NCBI GenBank assembly: GCA_029561955.1
Contig: JAKQWO010000036.1
Span: forward strand, 27,814-91,813
Origin: Candidatus Cloacimonadota bacterium
GTDB taxonomy: Bacteria > Cloacimonadota > Cloacimonadia > Cloacimonadales > Cloacimonadaceae
Length of the DNA: 64,000 nucleotides
Direction: 5' to 3'
Numbering within the stretch: position 1 is the first letter of the stretch; each line of letters starts with the position of its first letter. Position numbers and translations under genes: made by a program. Below are positions 17,244 through 28,700 of the stretch, piece by piece. The notes beneath the pieces were generated by a model. The model saw only the letters and a list, made by a program, of their open reading frames with translations, was not told the origin of the DNA and did not search any database.

Positions 17244-18119
17244 CTAAGACTGCCACTCGCCCCTGATCGCCTCCGCCAAAATCGCATGCCTCACACCCTT
17301 TTCACAAGCGGAAAAGCTGTCTAAATGCAGAATCTCCATCACTTCCATGATCAACAGCCCACCGGCGATGATGATGTCCGCTCTGCCGGGGTCCAAGCCC
17401 TGAATCTTTTTCCGCTCTGACAAAGGCTTTGCCTTGAGAAAATCGAAAAGCCCCAGCAGTTCCTCTTTGTTCAGAGTGATTTTCCCGCTGATGCTGGCCA
17501 GGTTTCTCGCTGTGCCGCCGATGACGATGAGGGCTGAGCTCTCCACACCTCTGATGTTTTGCTCTAACAACCCACGGATGTAGCTTCTCATCGCTTCAAG
17601 CGAGCTTTCAGAAGGTGGATCGTTGTCGATAAACCTATCCGTGAGCAGCACCGCACCCAAAGGTAGACTGCAGTTGTATCCCGGCTCATCTGAACCAAAT
17701 GCCAATTCCGCCGAACCGCCTCCCACATCCAAGACAGCTTTAGCACCAGCCATCACACTCTCTGCACTGGCAGCTTTGAAGGCCAGACAAGCCTCCTGCT
17801 CACTGGACAGCACGCCCATTCGCAGACCGGTTTCCTCTCTCACCCTCCCCCTAAAAGCCTCAGCATTATTCGCCATGCGCAAGGTCATCGCTCCCACGCA
17901 GATAATCTCCTGTGGCTCAAAAGGCCTGACCTCCGCCAAAGTTCGCTTAATCTGCTCAATCGCCTGAGTCGCCACCTGATCCGAGATGCCGCCCGTGGTA
18001 TGCAGATCCGAACCCAACCTCAAAGGCAGCGCTCCATCCAAAACTATGCCCTCATCCGAACCCACCACATATTTGTAGGTATTGGTGCCCAGCTCCAAGA
18101 CAGCGACCATCTTACTCAT
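17244..18119 (-). CDS. Ppx/GppA-family phosphatase
   Basis: 'VAVLELGTNTYKYVV' and 'LDVGGGSAEL'. Start set at ATG 18119, which forms an ATGA overlap with the upstream chrA stop. Confidence 0.8.
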   Translation of the reverse strand: MSKMVAVLELGTNTYKYVVGSDEGIVLDGALPLRLGSDLHTTGGISDQVATQAIEQIKRTLAEVRPFEPQEIICVGAMTLRMANNAEAFRGRVREETGLRMGVLSSEQEACLAFKAASAESVMAGAKAVLDVGGGSAELAFGSDEPGYNCSLPLGAVLLTDRFIDNDPPSESSLEAMRSYIRGLLEQNIRGVESSALIVIGGTARNLASISGKITLNKEELLGLFDFLKAKPLSERKKIQGLDPGRADIIIAGGLLIMEVMEILHLDSFSACEKGVRHAILAEAIRGEWQS

Positions 18120-18628
18120 CCGAACACCATGCCAAAAGCAGCTACACCTAACAGCATATAGATGGGATTCACCTTCCAACGCCAGATGATCAGGAAACAG
18201 ACCACAAACACCCCCACGGAAAACAGATCAGGGAAAGCGCTTTTGCCGATCAAGACCATGGCCGCTGCGATCAGCCCCACACTGAGCAGCCTCAGGCTTT
18301 TAAAAAGATTCTTAAACCACTCTTTTTGCTGCAGTTTGATGTAGGTGTGCGTGAGGATCAACATCAGGCACAGAGGCGCCAAAATCACGCCGAAGGTGCA
18401 GAGCACCGACCCCAAGATGCCATGAGTCTTAAAACCGATAAAGGTAGCCGCATTGATGGCGATCGGCCCCGGCGTCATCTGCGAAATAGCCACGACATCG
18501 GTAAACTCGCTCGCCGTCAGCCAGCCATGCTTGACTACGATCTCCTGCTGCAACATCGCCAAGATTGCATATCCGCCTCCAAAGCTAAACAACCCCACTT
18601 TTACAAAGGTGAGAAACATGGTTAGCAT
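18116..18628 (-). CDS. chrA: Chromate transporter family protein (half-size)
   Basis: 'FSFGGGYAILAMLQQEIV' plus multiple TM segments. Confidence 0.8.
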   Translation of the reverse strand: MLTMFLTFVKVGLFSFGGGYAILAMLQQEIVVKHGWLTASEFTDVVAISQMTPGPIAINAATFIGFKTHGILGSVLCTFGVILAPLCLMLILTHTYIKLQQKEWFKNLFKSLRLLSVGLIAAAMVLIGKSAFPDLFSVGVFVVCFLIIWRWKVNPIYMLLGVAAFGMVFG

Positions 18629-19173
18629 CAGTTCTTCCCTCGCTTCTCTTTAATCTGGCTGATGATCAGCGTCAAAGCGATGCAGATGATGATCACATAC
18701 ATGGGACTGATACCGATAAAAGCGACTGAAACCAACGCCAAGAGCGGAATCCAGAAATTGCGCCAGTTCAAGCCCACTTTCTGACTGATCTGGATCAAAG
18801 GCCAGGCGATCAGCGAAACTACCGCTGGCTCCAAAGCATGAAAAGCCTTGCGTACCAAGGGTTCCTGAGCATAACGTGTGAACAAACTGGCGATGATAAT
18901 GATGCTGGTAAAAGAGGGCAAAACCGAACCCAGCACAGAAACCAGCATGCCGGGAATGCCTTTGATGCGGTAGCCCACGTAGATACTCATGTTGATGGCG
19001 ATGGGCCCGGGCGAACTCTGCGCCGCAGCCACGCCATCAAGAAAATCCATATCTGTAAGCCACTTATGCTTTTCCACCACCTCACGTCTCATAATCGGGA
19101 TCATGGCGATGCCACCACCCAGGGTAAAAGCTCCTATCTTTAGGAAGCTGATAAACAACTGCCACAAAATCAT
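18628..19173 (-). CDS. chrA: Chromate transporter family protein (half-size)
   Basis: 'FTLGGGIAMIPIMRREVV' plus multiple TM segments. 1-nt overlap with its partner. Confidence 0.8.
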   Translation of the reverse strand: MILWQLFISFLKIGAFTLGGGIAMIPIMRREVVEKHKWLTDMDFLDGVAAAQSSPGPIAINMSIYVGYRIKGIPGMLVSVLGSVLPSFTSIIIIASLFTRYAQEPLVRKAFHALEPAVVSLIAWPLIQISQKVGLNWRNFWIPLLALVSVAFIGISPMYVIIICIALTLIISQIKEKRGKN

Positions 19174-19176
19174 ATG

Positions 19177-20241
19177 TTATATATCCTTATGTTGTTTGAC
19201 CAATTCCATCAGCGCCTCTACCAAATGCTCTTCCGCCACCTTTTTGATGATCTCGCCTTTGGCAAAGAGCAAGCCCTCGCCATCTCCGCCCGCAATGCCA
19301 AAATCCGCTTCCCTCGCCTCACCGGGGCCATTCACCGCACAGCCCATCACGGCCACGGTGAGATTCTTGTCCCGATAGGGAGCCAGCGCTTTTTCCACCT
19401 TGTCCACCAGCTCAAACAGCCGGATCTTGGTACGTCCGCAGGTGGGACAAGAGATGATATTCAAGCCCTGACGCAACTGCAAACCCTTGAGTATCTCTTG
19501 CGCCACCTTCACTTCCTGCACCGGGTCTGCCGAAAGCGAAACCCGCAACGTATCTCCAATCCCTTCATACAACAAGAGCGCCAGAGCCATGGAGCTCTTG
19601 ACGGTGCCAGAGAAGAGCGTGCCCGCCTCCGTGATGCCCAAATGCAAGGGGTAATCAACCTCAGAGGACAACAGCCTGTAAGACTCCACCATCAGTGGCA
19701 GATGCGAGGCTTTTACGGAGATTTTGATATTGCGGTAATCCAGCTCTTCCAGGATGCGCACGTGCCGCAAAGCCGCTTCCACCATGGAAAAAGCACACAC
19801 TCCATGCTCGGCAAGCAAATCCTGAGGCAGCGAGCCACTATTGACGCCGATGCGGATGGGAATATCCTGCTTGGCTGCGGCTTTCACCACCGCTTCCACA
19901 TTTTCCCGGCCGCCGATATTGCCGGGATTCAATCTCAGCCCATCCACATGGTTGTCCAAAGCGGCCAAAGCCAGCTTATAATCAAAATGAATGTCTGCCA
20001 CGATGGGCATGGACGTGCGTTCTTTGTAGATGCTCAGTGCTTTGGCGTCTTCGAGATTGGTGACGCTGAGCCGCACGATCTCACAGCCGGCCAGCTCCAA
20101 GTCCTTGAGCTGAGCCAGACAGGCTTTCACGTTCGAAGTGGGCACGCTGAGCATGCTCTGGATGGAAATGGGCGCACCACCACCGATGAGCAGCTTGCCC
20201 AGCTTGATTTGGCGGGTAGGTTTACGATTTTGAGTATTCAT
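19177..20241 (-). CDS. ispG: 4-hydroxy-3-methylbut-2-en-1-yl diphosphate synthase
   Basis: 'IKLGKLLIGGGAPISIQSM', 'CPTCGRT' and 'VMGCAVNGPGEA'. Confidence 0.95.
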   Translation of the reverse strand: MNTQNRKPTRQIKLGKLLIGGGAPISIQSMLSVPTSNVKACLAQLKDLELAGCEIVRLSVTNLEDAKALSIYKERTSMPIVADIHFDYKLALAALDNHVDGLRLNPGNIGGRENVEAVVKAAAKQDIPIRIGVNSGSLPQDLLAEHGVCAFSMVEAALRHVRILEELDYRNIKISVKASHLPLMVESYRLLSSEVDYPLHLGITEAGTLFSGTVKSSMALALLLYEGIGDTLRVSLSADPVQEVKVAQEILKGLQLRQGLNIISCPTCGRTKIRLFELVDKVEKALAPYRDKNLTVAVMGCAVNGPGEAREADFGIAGGDGEGLLFAKGEIIKKVAEEHLVEALMELVKQHKDI

Positions 20242-20306
20242 GTGCTCAAAAAGAATGAAAGGGGCTAATTTGTCAACATTGACGTTTTGTTTTCCGCGAA
20301 GAGGGC

Positions 20307-20497
20307 GGCGACTGCGTCGCCCAGTTGTTAGTTGCTAGTTGTTAGTTGTTAGCGGCTTCGCTGGTTTCGGGGATGCGCGTGCTTTTTGCTGAGATCCGTA
20401 CAGCTCTGAGGCTCCTTGTTTTTCCCACGAATTACACGAATTAACACGAATTGTATGATGAGAAAGTCCACAGATGCACACGGATTTTCACGGATGA
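20307..20497 (+). repeat. Left arm of a 191-bp inverted repeat
   Basis: It is the reverse complement of 24832-25022 with about 13 mismatches in my hand alignment. Contains the palindrome GGCGAC-TGC-GTCGCC, four heptads, and CACGGAT twice at the inner end. Confidence 0.9.
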
Positions 20498-20629
20498 CGA
20501 TGTTGGCGTAGGGTCGGTCGCCGGACCGACCAAGTTCAGAGGGATATAAACGTGCTGACGGCGTGTGTACGGGCGCTCGCTGAAGCGCCGCTTCCCAAGT
20601 CGTCAGTTGCCAGTCGTCAGTCGTCAGTC

Positions 20630-20768
20630 GCTGCGCTGGAGGTGTAGATACGGGTGTTTTTTGCTGGGATACGGATGGTTTTTGGGTGGGTGCGGATGGT
20701 TTTGTAGAGGGAGCGGATGGTTTTGGGGATGGTCGGTCCGGCGACCGACCCTACAGGAGCGCCCGTAC
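20630..20768 (+). repeat. R-family unit R1 (139 bp)
   Basis: GCTGCGCTGG..., three CGGATGG iterons starting at 20672, 20693 and 20714, then the palindrome GGTCGGTC-CGGC-GACCGACC and CTACAGGAGCGCCCGTAC. Confidence 0.9.
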
Positions 20769-20927
20769 GTGGCGAGTGCCGGTTACGTCTTCCTTGCTTA
20801 GCCGAGCGGTGATGCCGTGGCGATACTCGGGTTTTTCCCGAGTGGCTCCGAGTAATCACCGGGCGGCTAAGTAAGGGCGGGGGCAGCTTCGCTTCAGTTG
20901 TGAGTTGCGAGTAGTGAGTTGTGAGCC

Positions 20928-21048
20928 GCTGCGCTGGTTGTGTAAATACAGGTGTTTTTTGTAGAGGGGGTGCGGATGGTTTTGTAGAGGGAGCAGATGG
21001 TTTTGGGGATGGTCGGTCCGGCGACCGACCCTACAGGAGCGCCCGTAC
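20928..21048 (+). repeat. R-family unit R2 (121 bp)
   Basis: Same architecture as R1. Iterons start at 20973 and 20994, and the same palindrome is present. Confidence 0.9.
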
Positions 21049-21196
21049 ACCCCTCATCCGTGTAATTTGTGGCAAAACTCTCTAACTACGGTCTCAGTCA
21101 CCACTAAAAACACATCCATCTACATCGCTTGCGCAGCGACTGACGACTGACGACTGGCTACTGACGACTGGCGACGAAGTCGACCCTCATCCGTAT

Positions 21197-21234
21197 AAAA
21201 ACCAAAAACCCGCACATCCATACAGACATGCGGG
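21197..21234 (-). terminator. Intrinsic terminator candidate of the 1038-aa gene
   Basis: Minus strand: CCCGCA, 14-nt loop, TGCGGG, followed by TTTTTGGTTTTT. Lies 24 nt past the stop at 21258. Confidence 0.5.
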
Positions 21235-21257
21235 TCAGCATCATCTCTTTAGGAGTT

Positions 21258-24200
21258 TTAAGGTTTTTTCAAGGCTTTCTTAAGGTCACTGTTGTCAACG
21301 TAAACCACCCTGAAGAAGCGTCTGGCTTCTGTTGCGGGTATAGTATAACTATAGGTTTCAGATTCAGCTATGGGTTCAGGACCAAAGTTGTAAGGGTCTT
21401 CTGAAGCATAGATCATATATAGGCCGGGAGGGACGTCGGGGATAGGTTCCCAGGTTAGCACGATATCCGAGCCGGAGAGAGTTATTTGCACCACAGGTGC
21501 AGGGAGCAAGGTAACCACCTTGTCCGGACCGTATACATCATCGATCAGCAGATTGCCCTGCCCTGCGGAAATTGCTTGAATGACCAGATAGATATGCTGG
21601 CCGATATATGCTGACAAATCAAAGGAGTGTAACATATAATACTGGGCGTCAGCCTGTACATTGACAGCTAGGGTGTCGACAGTAGTCATGGAATGAACAC
21701 TTCCGGTGAAGACCAACACATTGAACATCGCTTCACGTTGAGTGCCGTAACTGCGTCCATAAAAGCTGAAGGTGTGGTTTAAATCTGATGGAGCCAGCTT
21801 GGGAGTGATCAGCCAGTCGTTATTGCCTACGGTGACAGCGTCAATCTGGGCATGCGCAACCCCGGTGTTTGACCATGTCTCGGAGCGGAACCAGGTGTTG
21901 CCGCCGCCTTCATTGATCAAAGTCCAGCCATAGGGCGGGAATGCATACCCTTCAAAGCTCTCAAAGAGCGCATTTGCACCCAAGGCTCTACCCTCCAGAG
22001 CTGCGTCATAGTTAATCCCATTATGAACCATACGCAAGGCAGCGGTATGTGCACCCTCTGTAGTGGGACAGTAACGCACCGGGATGATGCCGGTTTGGCG
22101 ATAAGTGAGAGCAAAAGGAAGATTGACAGGATCAAATTCAAACATCGCTGCATCATCTCCAATGATACTGATGTCGGCAGCACTCAAGTTCAGAGTTCCC
22201 ATACCATAATTGAACACAGTTAGATCCTGATACTCTGAGGCGGTATTGATTTGTAAGGTGCCGAGGTTCAGAGGGGTGGGGAAATAGGAAAGTATGGGCC
22301 CTGGAGGCGTTCGAGTCACCCAGAAGCTGTCGATGCTGAGATAGTGGGCATTGGCGATAATACCGTGAATGCCAATCCAATATATGCCATCGGCAGCAGG
22401 AGTGAAGCTGCCATAAATAAACTGATACCCACTGTTGACGACTCCGGTTTGGTCGACGATGATATTGTTCATGGCGTCAGGGGTTCCATCTGTTCCATAG
22501 TAGAAACCCACACTGGCATTTGATGCATTGAGTCCATCCTGTCTCGCCCATACTTCAACGGTGTAGGATTGTCCCGCCTGCAAAGAGAAGGGCCTCATCA
22601 ACCAAGCATTGCCGGTAGACCTCAAGATGGCATTGAAAGCTCCATTACGAGGGATGCAATTGAAGGATGTTTGGCTGGAATTGGCCATCCAATAATTAAC
22701 CGTACTACCTTCTGTATACTGCGTCCATTCCCGCACCGGAGTACCATCCGTTTGCCAATATTCAAATTCTTCACAGTAGGGTATGGAATAGATCACCGGA
22801 TCATAACATTCACCACTCACCACCAAATTTGCATTGTCAGTTTCAGCAGTTATGTTGAAGTTTGCCGAATGATTTCCGACAGCCGTGGGAGAATACACGA
22901 CACTCAAATACCAGCTTTGCCCAAATTCCAAAGCCATCGGGAAGTTGCGAGGTTCGTCCAATTCAAAGAATCCATCAGACCAGGGGCTGATACCCGTGAG
23001 GTTGAGTGTTCCACCTCCAGTGTTGATAACTCTGAAATTCATGCTTTCTACGCCATTGATCGGAATACGCCCAAAGTCCAAAGACGAAGGGTTGACCAAA
23101 AGTTCTGGCTCATCTGCTATTCCTATCATGATATTGGGACGGTTATAGCTACGAGTTCCTGTATTGACGGTATTCCAGGCAACAGAATCGCTACAGTAAT
23201 ACATGGCTCTATATTCGGAAGTGGTAGTGTAGTAGGTGCTGGCGTTTTGCGTGGCTGCTCCCTGCATGCTAAAGCTGGTTTGGATCACAATGTTGGAGGT
23301 TCCATCCCAGTAGAAGGGTGTAGCAAGCTGGTGGGTGTTCCATCCCTGTGTGGGAGTGATTCTTCTCCACAGTAATACACTGGTGAGATCGGTAAAGAAG
23401 TTGTTATCTGTAAATTCCGTGGCGTCAGTAGTTCCCATCCAAATGCTATAGAAGGGCAGGCTGCCACAGCCATTGGGGTTTGCCACATTGAATTTAATGG
23501 AACAGATCATCCCGGGTTGCACTCCTGCCGCAGTTAACTCGCTGGCTGTCACTATGTATTGTTCGCGGGCATTCCGCCGGTAGCCACCATATACAGCCGG
23601 ATATGAATGAGAATCATTGTATGTGGTTCCTCCGCCTATAGTCGCCCAACTGTCAGGGTGAAAGGTAACGAGAAAGTCGACTGACTGATTTTCGGTGCCT
23701 TGATAGTTGTAGCTCGCGGGTTTCCAAATAATATCGCCCAAAACCAGGCTATAAACACCACAGATTTCTTGAGTCTGACCTGTAAAGGTGTAGGGAGTGA
23801 CTTTGCCGGTGTCTTCACCATTCTTGTAAATGGCGGCACCGGGAATGTTTGAGTTTACAGTGAAGGAATAGGCGGCAACTGGAGCAGGAGGCACGATGAG
23901 CCAATTTGCCGAGCCGGTGTAGACAATCGCACTATGATCATAGGTCACCTCAATGGTCTTTTCTACATACTCATAATTAGGATAGGGGTGCACGCCACTA
24001 TGGATACCTGTATCATGGGTATGCCAGATCATGATCTTGAGGTGTTCGCCTAGAAACCACTGGTAGGGCCAAAGACTTTGATTGAACAGGGCTAAAACCA
24101 TATAACCATCACTTTCATTACCAACTTTACAAATCCTCATACTACTTGGAGGTGCACCTAAATCTGTGCCTCTTAACTCATTTGTTTCTACGTGAAGCAC

Positions 24201-24374
24201 CCTCATTATGTAGTGCTCACTGTCAGTATTACCTGTGTTGGTGACATAATCCACGATATCCATGGGACATTCAGGATCCAACTGCAGTCTTTGAATCACC
24301 CAACGAGACGGAGCCTGGGCAAAAGCCATGACTGCCAGCATTAGGAATACGAGTGTTAAAACAATCGTCTTCAT
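21258..24374 (-). CDS. Large secreted/surface protein, 1038 aa
   Basis: Signal peptide 'MKTIVLTLVFLMLAVMAFAQA', Ig-like beta-rich segments and a C-terminal FN3-like module. Shares an internal domain with the C25-PAD protein. Confidence 0.8.
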   Translation of the reverse strand: MKTIVLTLVFLMLAVMAFAQAPSRWVIQRLQLDPECPMDIVDYVTNTGNTDSEHYIMRVLHVETNELRGTDLGAPPSSMRICKVGNESDGYMVLALFNQSLWPYQWFLGEHLKIMIWHTHDTGIHSGVHPYPNYEYVEKTIEVTYDHSAIVYTGSANWLIVPPAPVAAYSFTVNSNIPGAAIYKNGEDTGKVTPYTFTGQTQEICGVYSLVLGDIIWKPASYNYQGTENQSVDFLVTFHPDSWATIGGGTTYNDSHSYPAVYGGYRRNAREQYIVTASELTAAGVQPGMICSIKFNVANPNGCGSLPFYSIWMGTTDATEFTDNNFFTDLTSVLLWRRITPTQGWNTHQLATPFYWDGTSNIVIQTSFSMQGAATQNASTYYTTTSEYRAMYYCSDSVAWNTVNTGTRSYNRPNIMIGIADEPELLVNPSSLDFGRIPINGVESMNFRVINTGGGTLNLTGISPWSDGFFELDEPRNFPMALEFGQSWYLSVVYSPTAVGNHSANFNITAETDNANLVVSGECYDPVIYSIPYCEEFEYWQTDGTPVREWTQYTEGSTVNYWMANSSQTSFNCIPRNGAFNAILRSTGNAWLMRPFSLQAGQSYTVEVWARQDGLNASNASVGFYYGTDGTPDAMNNIIVDQTGVVNSGYQFIYGSFTPAADGIYWIGIHGIIANAHYLSIDSFWVTRTPPGPILSYFPTPLNLGTLQINTASEYQDLTVFNYGMGTLNLSAADISIIGDDAAMFEFDPVNLPFALTYRQTGIIPVRYCPTTEGAHTAALRMVHNGINYDAALEGRALGANALFESFEGYAFPPYGWTLINEGGGNTWFRSETWSNTGVAHAQIDAVTVGNNDWLITPKLAPSDLNHTFSFYGRSYGTQREAMFNVLVFTGSVHSMTTVDTLAVNVQADAQYYMLHSFDLSAYIGQHIYLVIQAISAGQGNLLIDDVYGPDKVVTLLPAPVVQITLSGSDIVLTWEPIPDVPPGLYMIYASEDPYNFGPEPIAESETYSYTIPATEARRFFRVVYVDNSDLKKALKKP

Positions 24375-24483
24375 TGTGTTTCTCCTTTATAAATACAGTA
24401 TTGTGCGATAATTACCTGGTCATGATCCTATGTCCCTGCCAAGTGTACGAAAGCGGCAGAGGTCTACTTTGAGCTATGGGTAC

Positions 24484-24511
24484 AATATAATTGGGGTTTA
24501 AAAGTTGTCAA
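24484..24511 (-). promoter_or_regulatory. Sigma70-like promoter candidate of the 1038-aa gene
   Basis: Minus strand: TTGACA (24511-24506), 16-nt spacer, TATATT (24489-24484). Confidence 0.4.
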
Positions 24512-24706
24512 GATATATTTACCTACAAGTAGCACAAAATTACGTGAGTTATAATCTGACTGACGTTTGATGGCTGGAGAAGCAGATTATTCAGATATCA
24601 TCTGCCAGCCACCTTAATCGATCGGAACCGCATGCGTCCCTCTTTCGTGAACATTCGTTTCTCTGGTCGGTGCGGCTTTGCATTCGCAAGTCGTCAGTCG
24701 CCAGTC

Positions 24707-24826
24707 GCTGCGCTGGAGGTGTAAATACAGGTGATTTTTGGTGAGGGGTGCGGATGGTTTTGTAGAAGGAGCGGATGGTTTTGGGGATGGTCGGTCCGGC
24801 GACCGACCCTACAGGAGTACCCGTAC
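24707..24826 (+). repeat. R-family unit R3 (120 bp)
   Basis: Same architecture as R1 and R2. Iterons start at 24751 and 24772. The palindrome lies within 24789-24808. Confidence 0.9.
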
Positions 24827-24831
24827 ATCCC

Positions 24832-25022
24832 TCATCCGTGAAAATCTGTGTGCATCTGTGGACTCTCTCATCATACAATTCGTGTTAATTCGTGTAATTC
24901 GTGGGAAAAACAAGGAGCCTCAGAGCTATACGGATCTCGGCAAAAAGCACGCGCATCCAAGAAACCAGCGAAGCCGCTCACAACTCACAACTCACTACTC
25001 ACAACTGGGCGACACAGTCGCC
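24832..25022 (-). repeat. Right arm of the 191-bp inverted repeat
   Basis: Reverse complement of 20307-20497. Ends with GGCGAC-ACA-GTCGCC at 25008-25022. Confidence 0.9.
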
Positions 25023-25139
25023 CCCCATTCGTGGAAAAAACCCCTTCCATCCGTCTTGATTTACCTTGATGACCCGAAATTCCCGACTACCCTAAATCGG
25101 CTACTAGCCTCATTTTTAAGCTTTTCTTGAACTTTTCAC

Positions 25140-25166
25140 TTGACATAAAAGCTAACTTTATATCAT
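25140..25166 (+). promoter_or_regulatory. Weak promoter candidate for the HU/IHF gene
   Basis: TTGACA (25140-25145), 15-nt spacer, TATCAT (25161-25166). The spacer is short. Confidence 0.25.
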
Positions 25167-25233
25167 TGAATACTTTGATACCCGAATCGGAAAAACCAAC
25201 TAAAGATAAATGATTAAATCTAAGGAGATAACA

Positions 25234-25524
25234 ATGACAAAAGCAGATTTGGTAAAAAAAGTCGCGGAGGACACTGGCTACATTCGTAAGGATGTCGCCC
25301 TGATGATTGATGCCTTCTTGCAAGCAGTAAAGGACACCTTGGCCGAGGGTCACCACATCGAGATCCGTGGGTTTGGCACCTTTAAACTCAAAACACGTAA
25401 AGCCCGCATGGGTCGTAATCCCAAGACCAACGTCAAAGTACCGGTCGAAGCTCGCACCGTTCCCACCTTCAAGTTTTCACGTGAAATCAAGGACTTGGTG
25501 ACGGACATCGAGATTTCGGAATAA
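25234..25524 (+). CDS. HU/IHF-family DNA-binding protein
   Basis: 'IEIRGFGTFKLKTRKARMGRNPKTNVKVPVEARTVPTFKFS'. Start placed at ATG 25234, after AAGGAG. Confidence 0.9.
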   Translation: MTKADLVKKVAEDTGYIRKDVALMIDAFLQAVKDTLAEGHHIEIRGFGTFKLKTRKARMGRNPKTNVKVPVEARTVPTFKFSREIKDLVTDIEISE

Positions 25525-25536
25525 GGATCACCTCAA

Positions 25537-25626
25537 ATGCCTTGCGGAAAGAAACGTAAAAGACACAAAATTGCCACCCACAAGCGTAAAAAACGCCTTC
25601 GCAAAAACCGTCACAAGAAGAAATAA
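25537..25626 (+). CDS. 29-aa Lys/Arg-rich peptide, bS22 / mS38 (AURKAIP1-COX24)-like
   Basis: My own translation: MPCGKKRKRHKIATHKRKKRLRKNRHKKK followed by a stop. Too short for the ORF track. A terminator follows immediately. Confidence 0.6.
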   Translation: MPCGKKRKRHKIATHKRKKRLRKNRHKKK

Positions 25627-25639
25627 CGAATCCTTATGG

Positions 25640-25666
25640 AGCCCGCCTTTTGGTGGGCTTTTTTAT
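25640..25666 (+). terminator. Intrinsic terminator after the HU / small-peptide genes
   Basis: AGCCCGCC, TTTT loop, GGTGGGCT, followed by TTTTTTA. Confidence 0.75.
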
Positions 25667-25776
25667 TGGCCAGACTGCGCAGGATAAAGTCCGGCTCTCA
25701 CAATCCTATTGACAGTTTCGTGAGCTGGGAATTGCATGACCTCCAAATATCAGAACACAATGAAAGGGTAAAAGTA

Positions 25777-28700
25777 ATGAAATACTTAGATCGGATTTGG
25801 CTTAGCTTGTTGCTGCTGTTTCCTTTGCTTTTGATGGCGGGAAGTTTGCAACTGGGCTCTGGAGAAACGCTCGTAAACGTGCTGGAAAGCAGTGCGGAGC
25901 AGACTATATTACATTTTCAGATTGGCAGCTTCGAGAGTGAATCTGTCGAGATTGATAACGAAACTTGGCAGCACCTGATCCTGGAGAAAGAGGGTGTATT
26001 GCAGCTTGAAGGCTATCCCGCTTTGCCGGTGGTCAATCGCAGCATCATCATTGACGGCAGAGCACAGATGCATCTGGAGCTCTATGACGTAATTTATGAA
26101 GACCTGCAGCTCAAGGTGGCGCCCTCCAAGGGTGTGATCCCGCGCAATATTGACCCCAAGACGGTTCCTTACCGGTTTGCTGATGTCTATGAGAAGGACG
26201 AGTTTTATCCCCGCGAGATTGCCACACTCTCCGAGCCGTATATTTTGAGGGATTATCGTGGAATCACGGTCAATGCCACGCCCTTTGCCTACAATCCGGT
26301 GAGCCAGACGCTGCGCATTTTCAAGAGCTTTAAGCTGCGCATTTATGCCGAAGGCGAGAGTCAGGTGAACACGCTGGACGCCTCCCGCAGCAGCTTTAGC
26401 CGTGACTTTGAGCAGGTTTACGCTCAGCACTTTATCAACTGGCCTTCACATCGCTATACGCCTGTGAATGATAGCTTTGGCAAGCTGTTGGTGATCTGCC
26501 ACTCCAGCTTTATGGACGCTATCCAGCCCTATGTAAACTGGAAAAAGCAAAAGGGCATCGAGACTGAATTGATCAACTTTTCCACCATCGGCAGCACTGC
26601 CGCACAACTTCAATCCTACATCCAAAACCGCTATAATGCAGACAATTCCATCGCCTATGTGCAGATTGTTGGAGACGCACCCCAGATTCCCACCCTCACT
26701 CACCAAAGTGGCGGATCAGACCCCACTTTCTCGTTGGTTGCAGGTAGCGACAACTATCCGGACATCTTTATCGGACGCTTCAGTGCTCAGTCGGTGGCGG
26801 ATGTCAATGCGCAAGTAAACAAAACCATCGCCTACGAAAGGGACGCAACGACTGCCGACAACTGGCTTTCCCGCGCCATGGGCATCGCCTCAAGTGAGGG
26901 AAGTAGCAGCGCAGACAACGGCGAAACAGACATCCAGCACATGAACGTGATCAGAACTAAGCTGCTCAACTACGGCTACACCAGCGTGGATCAGGTTTAC
27001 GATCCGAATGCCTCTGCTTCGACCGTTACCAACAACGTCAATGCCGGACGTGGCTTGATCAACTATGTGGGGCACGGGGGAGACACCTCTTGGGTCACCA
27101 CCGGTTTTAACAACACCAATGCTTCCAACCTCACCAACGGCACCAAAACGCCCGTGATCATGGACGTGGCCTGCGTAAACGGCAACTTCGTTGCCAAAAC
27201 CTGCTTTGCTGAGGCTTGGCAGAGAAATGCCAACGGCGGCTCGGTGACCATATATGCCTCATCCATCAATCAGTCCTGGGCCTCTCCCATGCGGGCTCAA
27301 GATGAGTTTAACGACCTCTTGGTGGGCGAGCAGAAGTTCACCGCAGGCGGGCTTTACTACAACGCTTCCTGCAAGATGATGGACGTCTATGGGACTGATG
27401 GCGTGAATATGTTCAAGACTTGGCACATCTTTGGAGACGCTGCTCTCTTGGTGCGCAGCAAGACTCCTACTGCCATGAACGTAACCCACCCCAACAGCAT
27501 AGTTCAGGGCACCACTTCGCTGACGGTCAATACCGGAGTTGCCAATGCTTTAGTGGCTTTGACCAACAATAACAACATCCTCGGGCGAGGCTACACCAAC
27601 TCCGCCGGTACCGTCACTCTCTCTTTGAGTGGAATGCCGGAAGGCTCAGCCACTTACACCCTTACAGTCACGGCGCATAATCGAGTCACTTACATCGCTA
27701 CCGTTACCCAAGTTCCACCTTCCGGGCCTTGGATTGATGTGGAAGAGGCCACTTGGCAGGATAACAACAACGATGAGCCGGAATTTGGCGAAAGCGGAGC
27801 CTTGAGCCTGAAGCTGAAGAATTCGGGTTCAGAACCTTCTGCTGCGCTCACTCTTACCCTGTCCTGCAGCACCACCGGCGTGACGCTCACCAACAACACG
27901 CATCAGACGGATGCTATCGCAGCGGGTGTGACTGTGGACATCCATTCCGCTTTTGGCATTCAACTGGCAGATAACCTCTTGGATGGCACGGAGTTGAACT
28001 TCAGCCTGAGCATCACCTCAGGCACCCAAAGCTGGACTCATGAATTTGTCTTGATCGCCAAAGCACCAGCCTTAGCCTTGGGAGACATTCTGGTGAACGA
28101 CAGCACAGGCAACAACAGTGGCACCCTTGATCCCGGCGAAAACGTCAACCTCATCATCACGATACTCAACAACGGCGCAGCAGCCAGTCCTGCGGGAAGC
28201 GTCAGCCTCAGCTCACCCACCACCGGGATCACCATTGGCACCTCCAGCATTGATATCCAGAGCATCGCTGCGGGAGCGTCAATCCAGGTATCTTTCCCCG
28301 TCAGCGTCAGCGCCAGTATGCCTCAAGGCAGCTCTGCCAGTTTTGACGTCATGGCCATCACCGGTGCCTATTATGTCGCCCAAACCTTCCTCTTGCAGGT
28401 GGGTGATCCCATCGCGGTGACCATCGGCAACGGCACGGATACACAATCATATCCGCTGAATAGGTATTACAGTTACAGCGCGCACGAAGCCATCTACTTG
28501 AGTTCTGAGATTGGCATGGCCGGCAGGATAGAAAAGATCGCTTTCTACAAGAGCAGTGGGAGTGATACGAATCCAATTGAGGCAGTTCAGATCTACATGA
28601 AACACACTTCCAGCAGCACCCAGGACAATGGAACTTACAGCACAGCAGGTTACACTCTGGTGTTTAGCGGCAGCTATCCAAACCATAGCACCAGCGGCTG

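Follow-up and report, generated by a model that had tools for sequence, protein, structure and literature searches.

A 4.3-kb surface-protein gene segment between dispersed inverted repeats occurs in both orientations in Cloacimonadota contigs

Dispersed inverted repeats recombine homologously to give inversions, as is known for the Correia elements of Neisseria and for insertion sequence (IS) and rrn copies in many bacteria. Modular intergenic mosaic repeats have been described as BOX elements in Streptococcus pneumoniae and as BIME/REP clusters in enterobacteria, whereas site-specific invertons are flipped by serine invertases (Hin/Gin) or tyrosine invertases (FimB/E, Mpi, Tsr) and have been surveyed with PhaseFinder. 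Here we analyze a 4.3-kb segment of a Candidatus Cloacimonadota bacterium (GenBank assembly GCA_029561955.1) that lies between ispG and the gene of a HU-family DNA-binding protein and carries the gene of a 1038-aa secreted surface protein between two inverted repeats, armL and armR. The whole stretch of 64,000 nucleotides (nt) that was analyzed is called the window, and positions refer to it unless a contig is named; it sits on contig C67 of a 2.13-Mb genome in 81 contigs, estimated to be 99.5% complete.

The locus resembles the Correia, IS and rrn inversions in that inverted non-coding or mobile repeats serve as substrates, the crossover appears to fall where the two copies match perfectly and leaves recombinant arms, no dedicated recombinase takes part and the polymorphism separates otherwise identical strains. 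It is unlike them in that a single-gene unit of 4.3 kb is concerned, as opposed to tens to hundreds of kb, and in that the repeats form an apparently undescribed family of an uncultured phylum, known here from metagenome contigs alone. With BOX and BIME/REP the arms share short non-coding modules in variable order and number, hairpin parts, variable internal unit counts and tens to hundreds of lineage-restricted copies, nearly all intergenic. On the other hand, the sequence is unrelated, each copy here contains a 7-nt microsatellite tract whose unit varies between copies, and, unlike classical REP systems, the genome has no REP-associated tyrosine transposase (RAYT, Y1; PF01797, 0 matches). 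As in invertons, inverted repeats bracket a segment that public contigs show in both orientations and the cargo is a cell-surface protein, but the arms measure 195-250 nt and not 10-40 nt, no invertase gene is found nearby or in the genome, and the whole gene flips together with its promoter, with no ON/OFF logic apparent. The segment lacks two defining properties of an inverton, an invertase and an expression logic. By analogy, the closest known process would be homologous-recombination inversion between dispersed repeats and the closest known objects would be BOX or BIME/REP.

Both orientations of the segment in public contigs

A search for contigs encoding exactly the 1038-aa product yielded ten from ENA, JGI and NCBI, and a look-up with ispG added others. 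The window arrangement (state A) was found at the ispG junction in nine contigs (L105-L108, L129-L132 and L134) and at the HU junction in three (L110, L112 and L113). The inverted arrangement (state B) was found in two, L109 (NCBI GCA_035401385.1, 9228 nt) and L111 (JGI 3300025772, 6909 nt), which follow the window forward from 15519 or 17838 to 20532 and then in reverse from 25038 to 20604. In state B the order is ispG, an arm, the repeat R3, the promoter candidate and the gene, directed away from ispG, and both contigs encode the identical 1038-aa protein.

The junction arm of L109 and L111 was of the armL type at 12 of the 12 differences on the outside of the core (11 substitutions and one indel), and of the armR type at the inner markers 20464 and 20482 and in the inner indel block. 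The switch lies between 20401, the last armL marker, and 20464, the first armR marker; judged by these markers, the junction arm is an armL/armR recombinant whose crossover falls inside the 62-nt core that is identical in both arms (Table 1). Outside the arms, the two contigs were identical to the window over about 9 kb, save for one extra 21-nt unit at 20704 that also occurs in several state-A contigs. This near-identity indicates that the inversion is very recent or recurrent.

The original prediction had proposed an invertible segment on the one hand and a composite or excisable cassette on the other. The former is supported by L109 and L111, which carry the segment inverted relative to ispG with a recombinant junction arm. 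The latter was not supported, since the arms belong to a dispersed non-coding repeat and no target-site duplication is visible. Among the contigs listed at the locus there was no excision junction or empty site and no second location of the arm-gene-arm unit, and for want of an empty site, a second location and a target-site duplication we do not call the segment a mobile or excisable cassette. It appears to be invertible, yet it is no specialised cassette. A degenerate 82-nt four-junction pattern gave 0 matches against metagenome contigs, even for the window arrangement, near-identical records apparently having been left out.

The arms and their dispersed repeat family

The repeat search of the window gave an inverted pair of 195 nt with 93% complementarity and a spacing of 4334 nt. 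The inverted repeats of the original prediction (20307-20497 and 24832-25022) both lie inside these arms, and its estimate of about 13 differences, six of them in the heptad tract, agrees with the 13 substitutions and one indel found here, six of the substitutions being in the tract (24979, 24986, 24993, 24994, 24996 and 25000). The similarity runs further outward, as had also been noticed (TTTTCCGCGAAGAG versus TTTTCCACGAATGG), and in addition inward, past a 9-nt indel into the 25-nt palindrome GTAGGGTCGGTCGCCGGACCGACC; with indels allowed it covers 252 nt at 88% (20290-20532 versus 24788-25038, blastn). In order, armL consists of a GC stem-loop, the heptad tract (AGTTGTT)n, GCGGCTTCGCTGG, the core with three CACGAAT units, and CACGGAT units. 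The arms are symmetric, down to a promoter-like match pointing inward in each core, and they are non-coding, with no open reading frame (ORF) within them. In the heptad tract, four of the six substitutions are T versus G at heptad position 7; this identical change in all four heptad units from armL to armR is concerted and microsatellite-like.

The arms are members of a family. Searched against the genome with blastn, armL gave 78 high-scoring segment pairs at 70-87% identity, and an iterated nhmmer profile gave 171 full or partial matches, 144 of which have their midpoint outside ORFs in a crude ORF call. By the same call, copies occupy 72 of the 495 intergenic regions of at least 100 nt, with a 2.3-fold excess next to genes of 700 aa or more (p = 0.0015). 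The arms do occur singly in many intergenic regions, an outcome that the original prediction had set against itself together with the finding of one orientation only; this second part was not borne out. When family copies of 100 nt or more were compared in pairs (585 comparisons), median identity was 75% and the 99th percentile 89%, and the arm pair at 93% was among the four most similar. The similarity of the arm pair is far beyond chance. The most similar pairs of the family were nearly all local, both copies lying in one intergenic region or in neighbouring ones.

Three genomes of the genus contain 33-38 strong matches each and two more contain weak ones, while the family was essentially absent from the other genomes of the taxonomic family and order that were searched; the repeat is restricted to the genus. 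Its modules are a GC stem-loop, a tract of four to five heptads, GC(G/T)GC..CGCTGG, the core, which is the most conserved part and has its three CACGAAT units at a spacing of 10-11 nt, CACGGAT units, 21-nt GCGGATGG units and the palindrome GGTCGGTCCGGCGACCGACC. The heptad tracts keep their position and period, and their unit varies by copy and species (AGTTGTT, AGTCGTC, AGTTGTG, GAGAGGG and AGGTGTT), GAGAGGG being the unit in the sister species G002. Consecutive copies within one intergenic region were oriented ++ in nine cases, +- in nine and -+ in none, indicating a polarity rule by which the heptad ends face the neighbouring genes. No target-site duplications were seen around the repeats. 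Folded as DNA, the 356-nt composite element had no significant structure (z = -1.55), and a long hairpin like that of a miniature inverted-repeat transposable element (MITE) is accordingly not claimed for it. Literature searches on repeats in Cloacimonadota found nothing, and the family appears to be undescribed so far.

Two further repeats were observed. E110, a hairpin element between R1 and R2, is present at 117 distinct loci of the genome, mostly at 86-96% identity. Its RNA fold is -64 kcal/mol (z = -4.87), it has no Rfam match, and of 31 related genomes G000 and G003 alone contain it in abundance, while G002 has two matches. E110 has the look of a young REP/MITE-like element that is expanding, or of a small-RNA family. 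A second high-identity inverted pair of the arm family lies on contig C47 (14197-14352 and 15348-15503; 156 nt, 97%, with an identical run of 100 nt); it encloses about 1 kb of non-coding sequence in the interval that separates a 964-aa surface-protein gene from the neighbouring gene.

Origin of the inverted arrangement

The explanation that we favour, with moderate confidence, is that homologous recombination between dispersed repeats inverted the segment and that the two states are probably a neutral polymorphism at a hypervariable locus. Two copies of the modular repeat lie in opposite orientation in the intergenic regions flanking a lineage-specific surface-protein gene, and a RecA-type exchange within the identical core would flip the segment in part of the natural population. 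In either state the gene would keep the promoter and terminator that belong to it and the arms would stay symmetric, and repeated exchange or gene conversion between them would keep them alike. Such recurrent exchange or conversion would explain why the arms are 93% identical when the family median is 75%, and the local position of the most similar pairs fits local exchange. A RecA gene is present (C1:2347-3138, E = 6e-127), and the inversion is presumably RecA-dependent. The inversion is most likely neutral or nearly neutral and not an expression switch: promoter candidate and terminator are both part of the segment, its two arms match symmetrically and the upstream regions of ispG and HU are outside, so that no expression switch is evident. 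From the sequence anatomy, inversion would uncouple no promoter and swap no coding ends.

Several observations weigh against this explanation. The inversion is presumably reciprocal, and in the contigs only its ispG-side junction occurs; the reciprocal junction was not found among the HU-side contigs, which have the window arrangement, start inside armR (L117, from 24868) or bear an IS. L109 and L111 both stop at 20604, share the 21-nt variant and may come from one sample or strain. The 62-nt core is a shared de Bruijn node at k < 62, where a wrong path yields exactly the chimera observed. The C47 pair, with a longer identical run, was inverted in none of seven contigs, which indicates that identity alone does not predict inversion, the difference from the arms (two of 11) not being significant. 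The missing junction, the common end point and the shared node would equally be accounted for if L109 and L111 were assembly artefacts, the arms being static and the window orientation the only one in nature, and contig L114, which ends symmetrically within the core at both ends, indicates that assemblers falter there. However, the arms differ at 14 positions, so that the k values given in the names of ENA contigs, 119-141, leave no ambiguity, and a read of 100-150 nt is long enough to cross the core. L109 and L111 stem from two archives, and their left ends do not coincide. The C47 pair has the longer identical run, yet it was in the reference orientation in all seven contigs, one of them from the same metagenome-assembled genome (MAG) as L109, as was a second control locus, a gene flanked by an 85% pair, in five of five. 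We regard an artefact as fairly unlikely. Contig breaks inside the arms, considered as proof of mixed populations, were rejected as such, the symmetric ends of L114 fitting a plain repeat break with k = 55.

A programmed site-specific switch for phase or antigenic variation, with the arms as sites for a recombinase encoded elsewhere, could also produce both orientations. Their occurrence with no other sequence divergence suggests frequent flipping, the crossover interval is the most conserved part of the family with its three CACGAAT units, and the cargo is a variable surface protein; moreover, Xer-like recombinases drive surface-protein gene inversions in Mycoplasma, and the genome encodes one tyrosine recombinase (PF00589), which scores as XerC/XerD type. 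That match is the only one, and there were none to serine recombinases of the resolvase/invertase type (PF00239), which, the Xer-type enzyme apart, extends to the nearly complete genome the original remark that no recombinase is encoded in the window. The flip, with promoter and terminator inside and symmetric arms, has no evident effect on expression, about 170 further copies of the arm-family sequence would all be substrates, no flipping was seen at the two control loci, and the crossover interval is the only long identical stretch, as homologous recombination predicts. A programmed switch is in our view clearly unlikely. Another possibility, in our view an extremely unlikely one, is a composite mobile cassette flanked by MITEs, with the arms as its ends, in which the gene reached the ispG-HU gap and which is able to excise or transpose. 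Such a cassette would fit the different gene in this slot in G002, the broken synteny in G003, the lack of any orthologue of the 1038-aa protein above 47% identity in the genus, the bracketing of the gene by direct copies of a composite element of about 350 nt, and the active IS that has inserted next to HU in other strains. Against it stand the lack of an empty site or second location among the contigs listed at the locus, of a visible target-site duplication and of a Y1/RAYT transposase in the genome; the arm ends are, by eye, unlike the only end of the resident DDE_Tnp_1 IS that is visible, and the arms match other copies at only 70-87%, as a recently transposing pair would not. With arms that are not IS copies and encode no transposase, the segment is not a composite transposon.

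In favour of homologous exchange, repeats of this locus also appear to recombine in direct orientation. In two contigs (L130 and L131) 280 bp were absent between the direct repeats R1 and R2 (window 20688-21048), 20768 being joined to 20968; R1 and R2 share an identical run of 53 nt, and the absent stretch includes E110. The length difference is either a deletion in these contigs or a duplication or insertion in the strain of the window. Eight public contigs have one extra 21-nt GCGGATGG-type unit in R1, at 20704, indicating that the number of phased units varies between strains. A broader reading, which we think very unlikely, is that the repeats are a genus-wide recombination scaffold on which a host protein binds the phased CACGAAT/CGGATGG units that bracket surface-protein genes. 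If so, they would be portable sites promoting inversion, deletion and whole-gene replacement, as in the ispG-HU slot between species, and a recombinase-independent or Xer-driven system would diversify the cell surface of Cloacimonadota.

The ispG-HU locus and the significance of the repeats

The features of the locus are listed in Table 1. R1, R2, the terminator, the gene, the promoter candidate and R3 were all found between the arms, in agreement with the original prediction. A composite element of 300-350 nt lies immediately on either side of the gene; its two copies are in the same orientation and 77% identical overall, with a block of about 150 nt at 94%; armL is a third copy, inverted and partial, that adjoins ispG. 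The 1038-aa protein belongs to a large paralogue family with 28 matches in its own genome, and its closest match in the genus is only 47% identical. IspG is 94-95% identical in two genomes of the same genus. A wider scan of genome contigs with IspG matched distant taxa only; the best named match, Candidatus Zophobacter at 60%, places the genome in Cloacimonadota. A gene for a C25-PAD fusion protein lies downstream of the HU gene. An Rfam scan of 19000-26500 matched no family.

Table 1. Positions of the arms, repeats and genes at the ispG-HU locus (window coordinates unless a locus is named)
Feature	Position	Strand	Remarks
ispG (GcpE), conserved left flank	19177..20241	-	Pfam GcpE, E = 6.6e-142
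armL, left arm	20303..20497	+	repeat search of the window; nhmmer family-profile score 176; extended repeat 20290-20532
62-nt core, perfect identity in both arms	20402..20463 (= 24866-24927)	.	longest identical run between the arms
Heptad tracts	20323-20352, 20598-20632, 20896-20925, 24977-25006; L023:2497-2545; L024:283-960		
R1: heptad tract, GCTGCGCTGG, 21-nt GCGGATGG units, palindrome	20595..20785	+	direct-repeat partner of R2
E110, hairpin element of about 110 nt between R1 and R2	20782..20890	+	separate, highly abundant repeat
Composite element directly downstream of the gene: R2 and inverted heptad module 21106-21175	20885..21190	+	
Terminator-like hairpin of the 1038-aa gene, within the segment	21207..21236	-	
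1038-aa secreted surface-protein gene	21258..24374	-	signal peptide, choice-of-anchor D / Ig-like domain
Sigma-70-like promoter candidate of the 1038-aa gene (TTGACA-16-TATATT), within the segment	24484..24511	-	consensus match only, 11/12
Composite element upstream of the gene: R3 (24681-24843), then armR	24672..25032	+	
armR, right arm, inverted copy of armL	24832..25026	-	repeat search; nhmmer score 173; extended repeat 24788-25038
Insertion site of an IS (DDE_Tnp_1 transposase) in other strains	25125..25126	.	just upstream of the HU promoter
HU-family DNA-binding protein gene, conserved right flank	25234..25524	+	Pfam Bac_DNA_binding, E = 2.9e-30

Related genomes differ at this locus. The IspG of G002 is 95% identical, and between ispG and HU this sister species has another gene, on the opposite strand, for an M6-like peptidase with FN3 domains; read from its sequence, the C-terminus of this peptidase would be a sorting tail of the type IX secretion system (T9SS) type, and Pfam flagged none. 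There a (GAGAGGG)n heptad tract adjoins ispG and its complement adjoins HU (L023, G002:C34:84000-100000). In G003, a distance of 64 kb separates ispG from HU, their relative orientation is different, and upstream of HU is a gene of 2099 aa between direct repeats of about 200 nt (L148, G003:C22:58000-66000), an arrangement that marks a rearrangement breakpoint at the locus. The contigs of G003, G004 and G005 break just upstream of ispG. In six public contigs (L116 and L118-L122), which represent several near-identical strains of the species, the match to the window begins at 25126; the foreign part before it is 100% identical to resident IS copies. The inserted IS encodes a 432-aa DDE_Tnp_1 transposase, its site is about 15 nt upstream of the promoter-like TTGACA of HU, and copies of it lie at the ends of contigs C47, C17, C81, C4, C9, C10 and C52. 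The ispG-HU gap is a hotspot of structural change, where sister species have different surface-protein genes, some strains an IS and other strains an inversion.

The inversion at this locus is not evidence for a new kind of switch. Rather, the analysis illustrates how public metagenome assemblies can serve to check a structural variant that was predicted from nothing but sequence, and it documents an apparently undescribed modular intergenic repeat family in the Cloacimonadota, abundant syntrophs of anaerobic digesters. In public contigs the repeats of this family are sites of inversion (the arms), of a 280-bp deletion (R1/R2) and of changes in unit number (the 21-nt units). For annotators and builders of MAGs this means that the family repeats break assemblies and also create real heterogeneity between strains.

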